NCBI GenBank assembly: GCA_041691135.1
Contig: JBEPVF010000001.1
Span: forward strand, 192,001-256,000
From: Candidatus Peribacteria bacterium
GTDB taxonomy: Bacteria; Patescibacteriota; Gracilibacteria; Peribacterales; Peribacteraceae
DNA length: 64,000 nucleotides
Reading direction: 5' to 3'
The notes below the pieces were generated by a model. It was given only the letters and a program-made list of their open reading frames with translations, was not told the origin of the DNA and did not search any database. Position numbers and translations under genes: made by a program. Below, in pieces: positions 312 through 37,140 of this stretch; the first letter of the stretch is position 1; each line of letters opens with the position of its first letter.

Positions 312-339
312 TTGACTCACTCATCATTCCAAGTAAAAT
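312..339 (+). promoter_or_regulatory. sigma70-type promoter of the Met-leader transcript
   Basis: TTGACT (312-317), 16-nt spacer, TAAAAT (334-339). Predicted start ~346-347 coincides with the GTG of leader 1. Confidence 0.7.
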
Positions 340-346
340 CTCACTC

Positions 347-427
347 GTGACTACCTTACACCGCTCCTCCGGCAACACCATGATGCAGATGATGATGCCA
401 CGATTGCGAGGGCGGGTAACTGCATAG
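347..427 (+). CDS. Met-rich leader peptide 1 (MTTLHRSSGNTMMQMMMPRLRGRVTA)
   Basis: GTG start; ATG ATG CAG ATG ATG ATG at 380-397; TAG at 425-427; overlaps the antiterminator 5' arm. Confidence 0.8.
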   Translation: MTTLHRSSGNTMMQMMMPRLRGRVTA

Positions 428-477
428 TCACACTCTATGTTCCCGAAATTCCCCTCGCATCGATCGCGGGGTTTTTT
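405..477 (+). promoter_or_regulatory. attenuator 1 (antiterminator/terminator switch)
   Basis: TGCGAGGG (405-412) pairs with CCCTCGCA (452-459). The latter is also the 5' arm of the terminator 451-471, followed by T6 at 472-477. Confidence 0.8.
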
Positions 478-496
478 GTAGCCAAAAAGAAATCTC

Positions 497-592
497 ATGA
501 ACCTTCCTCAATTCTCTCCTAACGGCAGCATTACAAACATCACCACCATGATGAGTATGTGCATGCGTGTCCCGCGGGCGATGAGAGTATGA
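497..592 (+). CDS. Met-rich leader peptide 2 (MNLPQFSPNGSITNITTMMSMCMRVPRAMRV)
   Basis: ATG 497; MMSMCM cluster at 548-565; TGA at 590-592. Confidence 0.8.
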   Translation: MNLPQFSPNGSITNITTMMSMCMRVPRAMRV

Positions 593-650
593 GAGAAATG
601 GAACTCATAACTCACCCTGCGGGACTGCTGCAGGGGAGTTTTTCTATTTC
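569..650 (+). promoter_or_regulatory. attenuator 2 (antiterminator/terminator switch)
   Basis: GTCCCGCGGG (569-578) pairs with CCTGCGGGAC (616-625, one G-U). It competes with the terminator 609-622/628-640, which has a T-rich tail. Confidence 0.8.
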
Positions 651-666
651 TTTTATATTTTCTCTC

Positions 667-1620
667 ATGACTCATAATTTTCCAACCTATTCACTTCTCC
701 TTTCCGATACGTACGGTTCCTTCAATGACGATCCACTTCAGGCCCCCTTTGATCCTGATGTCACGACTTTGACCGATCTTGCGATCGTCCGCGATGCAAT
801 TGAGCATGGTGATCAGGAATTACCATCGCTTCGCTATAACCAAAAGGTCCCCATTCGCGGAAGAGAAGAGGCACTGGCTCATCATCTTTTACACTTGTTA
901 GTTGACTGGCACGATCAATACGAAGACATCCTGCGGTCTGCAGATATTTATAATGGCGTTTTCATCAATGCAGCTAGCCGGGACCGCATTGGTGGCATAG
1001 AACCATTCTCAGTGGCAGAAACAGACAATAATCTCCGCGTTGTCACGAGCAACTTGTCTTACCTGAGTGGCATAAAAAATAGAGTCAAATCCTTGAAGAC
1101 TATTCCAAATCAAGATAACCATCTGTTTCCCAATGGTACGCAATTTCGCTCAGAAGTGACGCATCTACTACTGCGCCGAAATAATACAAAAGCGAAACTT
1201 GTGGAGAGAAATACATCCGACATACCGCATGATTCGAAGGATAATGATTTGCGCGTGCAATTTGTCGACACCTTTGGCAACCTTATCACTGGTAATGAAC
1301 GTACGACTGAAGAAATTTTGCCGCGCCTGACTCAGGCAGCACACAGCGAACGCCGTCGCATTAAAATTATCATCGGCGAAAATGGGTCACATCAAACACT
1401 GCCTGGCTATGCAAGTACATCACTTGAAGCAGGAGAGACCGGAAAAGTTCTAGCATACGAAAACGGTAGACATGTTGATATCGTACGAAAATGGTTACCC
1501 GGCGAAAGCGCCAAAGTCACTACCGAAAAATCAGCGTACGTCTTGGCAGGCCGTCCCACAGAGAGGCAAGCAAAAGTGAGAATAGCCTTCGAAAGCGAGG
1601 AAGGTTTTGAAAACCTATAG
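667..1620 (+). CDS. SAM hydrolase / SAM-dependent halogenase (DUF62)-like protein
   Basis: Motifs LLSDTYG, FINAASR, GTQFRS and VDTFGNLIT resemble the family's TDFG, QFRSRD/TFHGRD and DxFGNxxT. Start moved to ATG 667, downstream of the attenuator. Confidence 0.6.
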   Translation: MTHNFPTYSLLLSDTYGSFNDDPLQAPFDPDVTTLTDLAIVRDAIEHGDQELPSLRYNQKVPIRGREEALAHHLLHLLVDWHDQYEDILRSADIYNGVFINAASRDRIGGIEPFSVAETDNNLRVVTSNLSYLSGIKNRVKSLKTIPNQDNHLFPNGTQFRSEVTHLLLRRNNTKAKLVERNTSDIPHDSKDNDLRVQFVDTFGNLITGNERTTEEILPRLTQAAHSERRRIKIIIGENGSHQTLPGYASTSLEAGETGKVLAYENGRHVDIVRKWLPGESAKVTTEKSAYVLAGRPTERQAKVRIAFESEEGFENL

Positions 1621-37063: not shown

Positions 37064-37140
37064 GGGCCAGTAGCTCAGTTGGTTAGAGCACAGGACTTAT
37101 AAACCTGTGGTCGGTGGTTCAAGTCCACCCTGGCCCACCA
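37064..37140 (+). tRNA. tRNA-Ile(UAU)
   Basis: Cloverleaf; loop CT-TAT-AA (37096-37102); A73 and CCA; A31-A39 mismatch. Confidence 0.9.

Follow-up and report, generated by a model that had tools for sequence, protein, structure and literature searches.

The window analysed here is a stretch of 64,000 nucleotides (nt) from the genome of a Candidatus Peribacteria bacterium (contig JBEPVF010000001.1), and our subject is a leader region at positions 312-666 together with the gene that follows it at 667-1620. The leader opens with a promoter and continues with two units of the same build, each comprising a short open reading frame (ORF) with a run of methionine (Met) codons, a predicted antiterminator hairpin and an intrinsic terminator. 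The gene encodes a protein that we place in the DUF62 / SAM_HAT fold, on a divergent branch (Table 1). The promoter, both Met-rich ORFs and both antiterminator/terminator pairs had been proposed in an initial annotation made from the sequence alone, and all of them were located in place.

The GTG start codon of leader ORF 1 lies 7 nt past the -10 box, and the same order of -35 box, -10 box, 5-9 nt and start codon is seen in 37 related leaders. In leader ORF 2, Met occupies 4 of the 6 codons at 548-565; across the long ORFs of the host genome (G000), Met makes up 2.3% of codons. The arms of both antiterminators are complementary, as initially annotated: 405-412 (TGCGAGGG) and 452-459 (CCCTCGCA) complement each other exactly in unit 1, and the core of unit 2 (569-578 with 616-625) is formed by nine Watson-Crick pairs and one G-U pair. 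Each stop codon was also correctly placed inside its antiterminator hairpin, with TAG 425-427 and TGA 590-592 both falling in apical stems (588-593 in unit 2). Folded alone, positions 400-465 form the three-part hairpin of antiterminator 1 (-26.4 kcal/mol, z -4.25). The minimum free energy (MFE) fold of untranslated unit 1 (347-480; -43.6 kcal/mol) consists of the terminator and a 5' hairpin in which 347-353 pair with 424-430 and approximately 361-373 with 406-420; this fold is the "off" state of the unit.

Table 1. Elements of the leader region and the gene behind it (window coordinates).
Feature	Position	Strand	Description
Sigma-70-like promoter	312..339	+	-35 TTGACT 312-317, 16-nt spacer, -10 TAAAAT 334-339; 10/12 matches
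Leader ORF 1	347..427	+	26 codons, GTG start, encodes MTTLHRSSGNTMMQMMMPRLRGRVTA; C-terminal part ..TMMQMMMPRLRGRVTA; stop TAG 425-427
Regulatory Met codon run, ORF 1	380..397	+	ATG ATG CAG ATG ATG ATG; 5 Met in 6 codons
Possible segment 1 (anti-antiterminator)	361..373	+	paired to 406-420 in the untranslated leader's MFE fold
Antiterminator hairpin 1	401..462	+	stems of 401-416 with 442-445 and 452-462; apical stem 422-427/435-440
Intrinsic terminator 1	453..477	+	stem 453-458/466-471, then T6 at 472-477
Leader ORF 2	497..592	+	31 codons, end ..TTMMSMCMRVPRAMRV; stop TGA 590-592
Antiterminator hairpin 2	565..628	+	core 569-578 with 616-625; -33.2 kcal/mol, z -4.6
Intrinsic terminator 2	612..643	+	stem 615-622/628-635, T5 at 639-643; -16.4 kcal/mol, z -3.6
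Regulated gene	667..1620	+	317-aa protein of the DUF62 / SAM_HAT fold, divergent

A consensus scan of the locus returned seven promoter-like sites against 2.1 +/- 1.4 expected, and four terminator-like sites against 2.8 +/- 1.9 in shuffled sequence. Such local scans by themselves decide nothing; conservation in other genomes is decisive. A search of positions 1-2000 with Rfam cmscan (E<=10) gave no match to a SAM riboswitch (SAM, S-adenosylmethionine) or a T-box, and returned only eukaryotic microRNA and small nucleolar RNA families at chance level.

Conservation, translation and pairing of the leader

A homolog of the 667-1620 gene was found in 13 of 61 related genomes, all from one family. 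Within the 450 bases read upstream of each of these 13 loci, a Met-run short ORF, a GC hairpin and a T tail are present at six (L001, L002, L003, L004, L012 and L013), including loci whose protein is merely 35-39% identical to that of the window. The search was widened with the exact pattern ATGATGNNNATGATGATG, which occurs in 101 of 200 family genomes; the reversed control pattern occurs in 11. Part of these matches are coding, being poly-Asp frames or Met-rich proteins, and 50 of 97 pattern places were flagged as leader-like (a stop within 22 codons and a terminator). One source of the coding matches is a Met- and Gly-rich protein segment (..GNAGMMMPMMGMMMGNGMMGG..) that recurs in L017, L045, L060, L068 and L091. 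When the arm motif was required as well, 21 of 64 family genomes still matched; among 336 genomes representing 39 further families of the class, 2 did.

From 43 leaders we derived a covariance model, R1, of 107 positions; alignment A3 leaves out L013, which contains N, and L036, L041 and L054, which are cut by contig ends. R1 matches 80 of 151 family genomes, representing 52 of 84 genera, with one to four copies per genome. Two close matches on one contig were found in at least seven genomes (G004, G018, G031, G066, G082, G083 and G117), and tandem units are therefore a recurrent design, which the same-genus genome L013 likewise displays. Unit 1, itself a member of the training set, reaches 69.1 bits with R1, and unit 2 is the second-best R1 match within the 64 kb of the window; across G000, the model returned one match. 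A scan of G000 for at least four ATG per seven in-frame codons gave about 65 places, of which the two in the window are those that look leader-like by eye.

We also scanned a collection of named genomes for the pattern, obtaining at least 120 stretches, of which the best 80 loci were examined. Among the matches listed, the records that show the same arm and terminator are all titled Candidatus Peribacteria, Peregrinibacteria or Peribacteraceae, apart from one Candidatus Gracilibacteria record, and no arm-bearing form, although some short frames, appeared outside Peribacteria/Gracilibacteria. These titles agree with the initial annotation, which had guessed a Candidate Phyla Radiation (CPR) cell. 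Two of the short frames, in a Pseudobdellovibrionaceae record (L145) and in a Bordetella-titled record (L176), have long Met runs and a strong terminator each, and could be out-of-frame acidic gene tails or unrelated Met-rich leaders. The host genome measures 1.74 Mb and its relatives 0.6-3.0 Mb, mostly 0.8-1.9 Mb. In our interpretation, the leader family forms a small Met regulon in the family of the host, most likely Candidatus Peribacteraceae of the CPR.

Translation of the leaders was assessed from the position of their start codons. The criterion was a -10-like hexamer with GTG or ATG 5-9 nt further on, candidates being picked regardless of frame, and such a start is found in 43 leaders. 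Of these starts, 42 share the frame of the Met run, and 41 of those frames are open; where a -35 box is present too, the start is in frame in 37 of 37 cases. By chance, one in three would be expected. Distances from start to Met run take the values 18, 21, 27, 30, 33, 45, 51, 57, 69 and 78 nt, the sole exception being L105 (49 nt). Since the start codon lies 5-9 nt past the -10 box, at or adjoining the transcription start, a leaderless small ORF (sORF) is indicated. Leader 1 is thus probably translated as a leaderless sORF, with transcription starting at or beside GTG 347.

The stop codon follows 15 codons past the start of the run in most leaders, and additional bases within the run come as whole ATG codons (L012, L067, L125). 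The related leaders retain three to eight Met codons in varying patterns (MQMMM, MAMAMMM, MMMSMPM, MMSRMMM, MFMMMHMM, MGMMMLM and others, from R1 matches lacking the exact pattern); what they preserve is Met richness and no fixed peptide. An Arg-Gly pair past the run is missing from 6 of 43 leaders and is written CGA-GG in all 37 leaders that have it, whereas CGA accounts for 11.8% of Arg codons in the long ORFs of G000; its conservation therefore belongs to the RNA arm. Both AUGAUGNNNAUGAUGAUG and the arm are strongly conserved at the sequence level.

The pairing of the two competing structures was then evaluated on the 43-leader alignment. For the antiterminator, 77.4% of cells are paired, compared with 34-54% when the 3' partner is slid, and six core pairs form in 36-42 of the 43 leaders; its 22 double-change cells are reached by 2 of 500 shuffles. 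For the terminator, 92.0% of cells are paired, compared with 38-66% when slid, and none of 500 shuffles reaches its eight double-change cells. Related sequences can beat shuffles even without structure, and we therefore take the support to consist of the pairing potential and of a few compensatory cases (e.g., L004, L037). Pairing of segment 1 with segment 2 averages -15.2 kcal/mol across the family and -12.5 kcal/mol in controls, with 4 of 43 leaders better than 95% of their controls. A conserved 1:2 pause hairpin is not claimed, as this duplex test is weak.

Genes behind the leaders and the DUF62-like protein

To see what the leaders stand before, we compiled a first set of 53 leaders with a downstream ORF. 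This set omits L085, which was script-positive and has no arm, as well as the duplicates L016 and L031, and includes seven leaders added by eye in which the script detected no terminator (L013, L029, L039, L041, L054, L071, L098). Twenty of the 53 precede a member of the 667-1620 protein family (profile E 8e-41 or better), and eight a homocysteine S-methyltransferase (PF02574, E 6.9e-15 to 6.1e-20 in the three tested). In one case (L072) the gene behind the leader is a bona fide DUF62, over cut-off for both SAM_HAT_N (71.5 bits) and SAM_HAT_C (33.1 bits). Eleven precede an ORF of 64-73 aa without a Pfam match, followed in turn by histidyl-tRNA synthetase (six cases) or by a homolog of the window's ORF 1747-2406 (five cases), and the remaining 13 precede proteins with weak or no Pfam match.

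A second set of 27 further loci, taken from model matches, comprises nine DUF62-like genes, two homocysteine methyltransferases, two class-I methyltransferases, three members of two unnamed families met before, three of the small-ORF type and eight unassigned. L259, where SAM_HAT_N and SAM_HAT_C stand behind a leader, provides a second DUF62 case. Of the two matches to pattern and arm outside the family, one precedes HTS/MetA (PF04204, E 1.5e-16, over a fragment of 51 aa where the contig ends) and the other a pyridoxal phosphate-dependent Cys/Met enzyme (Cys_Met_Meta_PP, PF01053, E 4.6e-138). Targets within Met metabolism behind this one type of leader therefore include PF02574, PF01887 with PF20257, PF04204 and PF01053. 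Canonical DUF62 genes as such occur in 12 of 200 family genomes.

The product of 667-1620 was examined by structure prediction and profile comparison. AlphaFold2, run on a 20-row alignment, gave a model (predicted local distance difference test, pLDDT, 89.6; predicted template modelling score, pTM, 0.88). Foldseek against the PDB returned 30 hits at E<=1e-3, the best being 2zbv_C (E 1.9e-9), with template modelling scores of 0.41-0.59 and 11-14% identity. Among the matches listed, all are DUF62 proteins (2zbv, 2f4n, 22uy, 2cw5), SalL/ClA chlorinases or fluorinase, and the next unrelated match stands at E 0.016. By sequence profile, the PDB gave a weak match to the C domain only (2zbu, E 0.0068), and a profile comparison with nine canonical or intermediate DUF62 proteins gave a probability of 90.8% (E 1.2e-6). 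Conserved motifs are SDTYG (13-17), N101..R105, Q159-F-R-S162 and D201-x-F-G-N205; the family invariants are N101, R105, F114, Q159, R161, S162, D201, L253 and Y264. The catalytic triad of DUF62 is Asp-Arg-His; here R105 is invariant and N101 stands at the expected Asp position.

A homotrimer model with SAM scored 0.93 (0.93, 0.92 and 0.93 in three runs), and the best of three controls scored 0.00. Of 30 solved one-chain pairs, 20 attain this score, as does 1 of 23 single chains; since DUF62 trimers have already been solved, the pass may reflect mere likeness to them. At least 87% of contacts are common to the runs, and the partner pLDDT is at least 87. The predicted interface joins residues 13-19, 103-107 and 157-159 of one copy with 202-203, 252-254 and 276-283 of the next.

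The family is small. A search for homologous proteins gave three, and a profile search of representatives was used instead, which found 229 at E<=1e-3 (129 at 1e-10, 88 at 1e-30) among 1.84 billion. SAM_HAT_C scores of relatives rise to 23.8 bits; the most distant profile hits are about 270 aa long, and 9 of 10 tested match SAM_HAT_C, seven of them over cut-off, for which reason we regard the family as a divergent branch of the DUF62 superfamily. To our knowledge, all DUF62-fold enzymes characterised so far act by displacing L-Met from SAM. In our reading, the 667-1620 product would release L-Met from SAM or a close analogue.

The gene content of the host bears on what such an activity would do. 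G000, which is 92% complete, encodes MetK and adenosylhomocysteinase (AdoHcyase); HTS, Cys_Met_Meta_PP (PF01053), MetE (PF01717), homocysteine methyltransferase (PF02574) and canonical DUF62 (PF01887) were not found in it, and their absence is not proven at this completeness. This gene set is consistent with Met auxotrophy, and the auxotroph suspected in the initial annotation fits it. A homocysteine methyltransferase acting together with AdoHcyase would convert SAM to Met and adenosine, the same net reaction as that of a SAM hydrolase, and on this account the common thread of the regulon would be Met recovery from SAM. De novo steps stand alongside in two other families, and the class-I methyltransferases and unnamed targets do not fit Met recovery neatly. 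Cleavage of SAM by DUF62 enzymes has been reported, and selectivity towards the inactive (R)-sulfonium epimer is described in a 2025 preprint (10.1101/2025.08.29.672840).

Several further features of these loci were noted. Class-I SAM-dependent methyltransferase genes lie behind Met leaders at L298:641-1693 (1.9e-13), L299:358-1701 (1.3e-7) and L036:402-1265, and could be unconventional thiol or homocysteine methyltransferases. The small protein of 64-73 aa begins MVN(L/F)(L/I)P (L019:1332-1523, L025:1630-1821, L096:661-876, L127:1191-1409) and takes the position held in the window by the DUF62-like gene, its neighbour being hisS or the 1747-2406 homolog (MADQ..PRPGDPVP.GGLDPTQVF). In genus g103 and neighbours, MMHMMMH leaders (L079, L080, L088, L090, L093, L095) have His codons in and just past the Met run, and a histidyl-tRNA synthetase gene begins 385-508 nt downstream of them. 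Relatives (L002:1413, L004:1360, L028, L032, L033, L055, L056, L084, L129) have, in addition, a second conserved mini-ORF (M-K/R-L-F/Y-I-L-Y-L-R-T-D-C/S-M/N-L-M-R...), which follows the terminator of the first Met leader and precedes the regulated gene. For nine of its 10 distinct copies, a Met leader stands no more than 260 nt upstream, and no clear terminator follows. The copies show synonymous codon differences, which suggests that the peptide is under selection, and it may be an arrest or coupling upstream ORF. Strongly canonical DUF62 genes lie directly downstream of a tRNA-like sequence at 5 of 10 loci (L251, L252, L254, L256, L257), with no Met leader.

In the window itself, a strong hairpin and T/A-rich sequence at 1628-1670 directly follow the stop of the 667-1620 gene, and a separate promoter-like site (1696-1723; TTGTCA, 16 nt, TACACT) precedes ORF 1747-2406, so that this ORF is probably not co-transcribed with the DUF62-like gene. 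ARAGORN places a tRNA-Ile with anticodon TAT at 37064-37140 (+); a tRNA-Ile of this kind is an uncommon bacterial means of reading AUA.

Proposed mechanism, alternatives and known systems

We interpret 312-666 as tandem ribosome-mediated Met-codon attenuators, and 667-1620 as encoding a trimeric, divergent DUF62 protein that would release Met; we assign this reading a probability of about 0.78. When Met-tRNA(Met) is ample, the ribosome would reach the stop codon at 425-427 and melt the antiterminator, terminator 453-477 would form and transcription would halt. When Met-tRNA(Met) is scarce, the ribosome would stall in the AUG run at 380-397, leaving 401-416 free to pair with 442-462; the antiterminator so formed would block the terminator and RNA polymerase would read on. 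Unit 2 (497-643) would repeat the test ahead of the gene. The signal would thus be charged elongator tRNA-Met at the ribosome, and the gene product would supply a Met auxotroph with emergency Met from SAM. The ribosome footprint sizes behind the stalling and stop-codon argument are general knowledge. On the sequence evidence, we consider the Met-codon leader attenuator real and conserved, and starvation sensing and a Met-releasing activity well-motivated extensions of it.

A number of observations weigh against this reading. Terminator 1 is modest by itself (-9.2 kcal/mol, z -1.3), the MFE fold of untranslated unit 2 retains the antiterminator, and R1 scores unit 2 at only 13.2 bits (E 0.034), a weak match. 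Pairing of segment 1 with segment 2, which the classical four-segment model calls for, is weak, and that of the window is equalled by 9.5% of controls. Antiterminator pairs changed on both sides are not above shuffles (76 of 500 reach the count), and covariation is limited, as the arms are nearly invariant; variation is constrained because one segment has to pair with two partners. Met shortage should also restrict initiation of the leader itself. Seven of the 13 homologs have no leader, five of them lying directly behind a gatA-like gene, and a leader is present at only 2 of 11 DUF62 loci, both more divergent (L259 and L072/L261), the strongly canonical ones being without it. The targets include class-I methyltransferases and proteins that match nothing in Pfam, neither of which would obviously yield Met. 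As to the window protein, it has no SAM_HAT_N (PF01887) hit at E<=1, its SAM_HAT_C (PF20257) score of 18 bits lies below the cut-off of 25.5, the profile comparison (hhalign) covers residues 150-282 only, in the C-terminal part, and FPNGT stands opposite the canonical FHGRD, so that the catalytic His appears not to be kept.

The reading of the initial annotation is nevertheless supported, as it passed both refutation tests that were run. The annotation had asked for Met runs and covarying stems upstream of homologs: runs and stems are there at six of 13 loci and in 80 of 151 genomes, with the terminator 92% paired and the antiterminator core in 36-42 of 43 leaders; the other seven loci and the double-change pairs of the antiterminator are caveats. 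It had also called for a comparison of the protein with DUF62; the fold stood, by AlphaFold2 and Foldseek, and membership by Pfam cut-off and the FHGRD His motif did not. On account of these last two, SAM hydrolysis is inferred.

On this protein evidence, a first alternative accepts the leader as proposed and gives the DUF62-fold protein another substrate or nucleophile, or non-catalytic binding of SAM or adenosine, the circuit then serving SAM or methyl homeostasis. It draws on the scores below the Pfam cut-offs, on the lack of conservation of FHGRD and the invariants of the family's own (N101, R105, Q159, R161, S162, D201), on the strongly canonical DUF62 genes that lack leader control and on the class-I methyltransferases among the targets. 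Yet, as far as is known, the characterised DUF62-fold enzymes all displace L-Met from SAM, true SAM_HAT and homocysteine methyltransferase genes stand behind the same leader, and the latter would, with the AdoHcyase of G000, carry out the same net reaction. We regard this alternative as unlikely, while giving it real weight.

Much less probable is an arrest peptide of the TnaC/SpeFL type, in which the Met-rich nascent chain would respond to free Met or SAM as a ligand and induction would follow abundance. Inducing a SAM-destroying enzyme upon SAM excess would be sensible, and the ..M-run-x-x-x-R-G core is conserved. However, the RG is fixed as nucleotides (CGA-GG in 37/37 against 11.8%) and forms the antiterminator arm, the number and spacing of Met vary freely, and biosynthetic targets (HTS, Cys_Met_Meta_PP, homocysteine methyltransferase) suit induction by shortage. 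Slightly weaker again, and in our view improbable, is the proposal that the AUG repeats are untranslated and belong to a riboswitch or to the site of an RNA-binding protein controlling the same terminator. Conservation of AUGAUGNNNAUGAUGAUG and the arm as sequence would agree with it, and Met has a single codon, which makes synonymous variation unusable as a test; but the in-frame starts fall at variable multiples of three (42/43, and 37/37 with a -35 box), run insertions are whole ATG codons (L012, L067, L125), an in-frame stop lies at a fixed distance, and Rfam gave nothing at E<=10 beyond the chance-level eukaryotic families. Mere chance, a Met-rich short ORF that happens to lie beside two terminators, would agree with a local terminator count no higher than in shuffles, but it is hardly credible given 80 of 151 family genomes with related genes behind the leader and the pairing preserved.

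A wider proposal builds on tandem Met-codon attenuation. In the family of the host, leaderless Met sORFs would read the charging of Met-tRNA and form a "Met ribulon", switching on enzymes that turn SAM, of the cell itself or of a host, into Met: the new DUF62-derived family with an N/R/Q-R-S active site, true DUF62, or homocysteine methyltransferase with AdoHcyase, and with the mini-ORF as a separate layer of control. We put this forward tentatively, at somewhat less than even odds. If true, it would be the first Met-sensing leader peptide, and no cis-regulatory RNA regulon would have been described in the CPR before it. The leader offers a regulatory handle on an uncultured CPR lineage and a testable function for a small orphan DUF62-fold branch, with 229 representatives in 1.84 billion proteins, and it suggests that these auxotrophs use SAM as a Met reserve.

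Met genes are usually under SAM riboswitches, T-boxes or protein repressors, and leader-peptide attenuation is a textbook mechanism. An attenuator that reads Met is conceptually awkward, since Met shortage also limits initiation, and a natural, widely conserved example therefore makes the initiation question testable. The initial annotation knew of no characterised Met-leader attenuator, and we found none in the full-text literature searched, outside whose scope lie most subscription journals and survey supplements, which could hold some. None is described in the available parts of PMC2965389, PMC11550727 and PMC1262725, the last of which reports, in those parts, no conserved RNA element upstream of methionine operons in Actinobacteria.

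The likeness to classical attenuators (trp, his, leu, thr, pheA and ilv in Proteobacteria, trp in Actinobacteria) extends, as far as the available parts of PMC1262725 and PMC2965389 describe them, to a short ORF with a run of codons for the sensed amino acid, an antiterminator overlapping the 5' arm of the terminator, a stop codon whose position sets the hairpin, and targets in the metabolism of the sensed amino acid. In contrast, the window leader reads Met, is probably leaderless and belongs to a CPR host; targets of its type are mainly SAM-cleaving or SAM-using enzymes in place of a biosynthetic operon, the 1:2 pause hairpin shows no clear conservation and the units are often tandem. The polycysteine leaderless sORFs of mycobacteria, the "Cys ribulon", resemble it in having runs of codons for one amino acid upstream of loci of that metabolism and in common ribosome pausing that makes the loci a regulon, like the proposed Met regulon (10.1101/834739). 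They differ in amino acid and phylum and in acting on the ribosome-binding site, whereas the Met leader would act on an intrinsic terminator (10.1101/834739).

With DUF62 (PF01887 and PF20257; 2zbv, 2f4n, 22uy), SalL and fluorinase, the window protein shares the two-domain fold, the predicted homotrimer and the interface motifs; its S-D-T-x-G resembles the canonical T-D-F-G of DUF62, and D-x-F-G-N of the C domain is in common. Unlike canonical DUF62, the window family has N-A-A-S-R in place of D-P-G-V-G-T-x-R, an invariant Q-F-R-S and no F-H-G-R-D, and the window protein is about 50 residues longer, at 11-14% identity and with no PF01887 hit. Finally, genes of the kinds found behind the leaders described here (metA, metY/metB, homocysteine methyltransferase) are also governed by SAM riboswitches, Met T-boxes and MetJ/MetR; in place of SAM or uncharged tRNA, the signals of the riboswitches and T-boxes, the Met leader would read charged elongator tRNA-Met.

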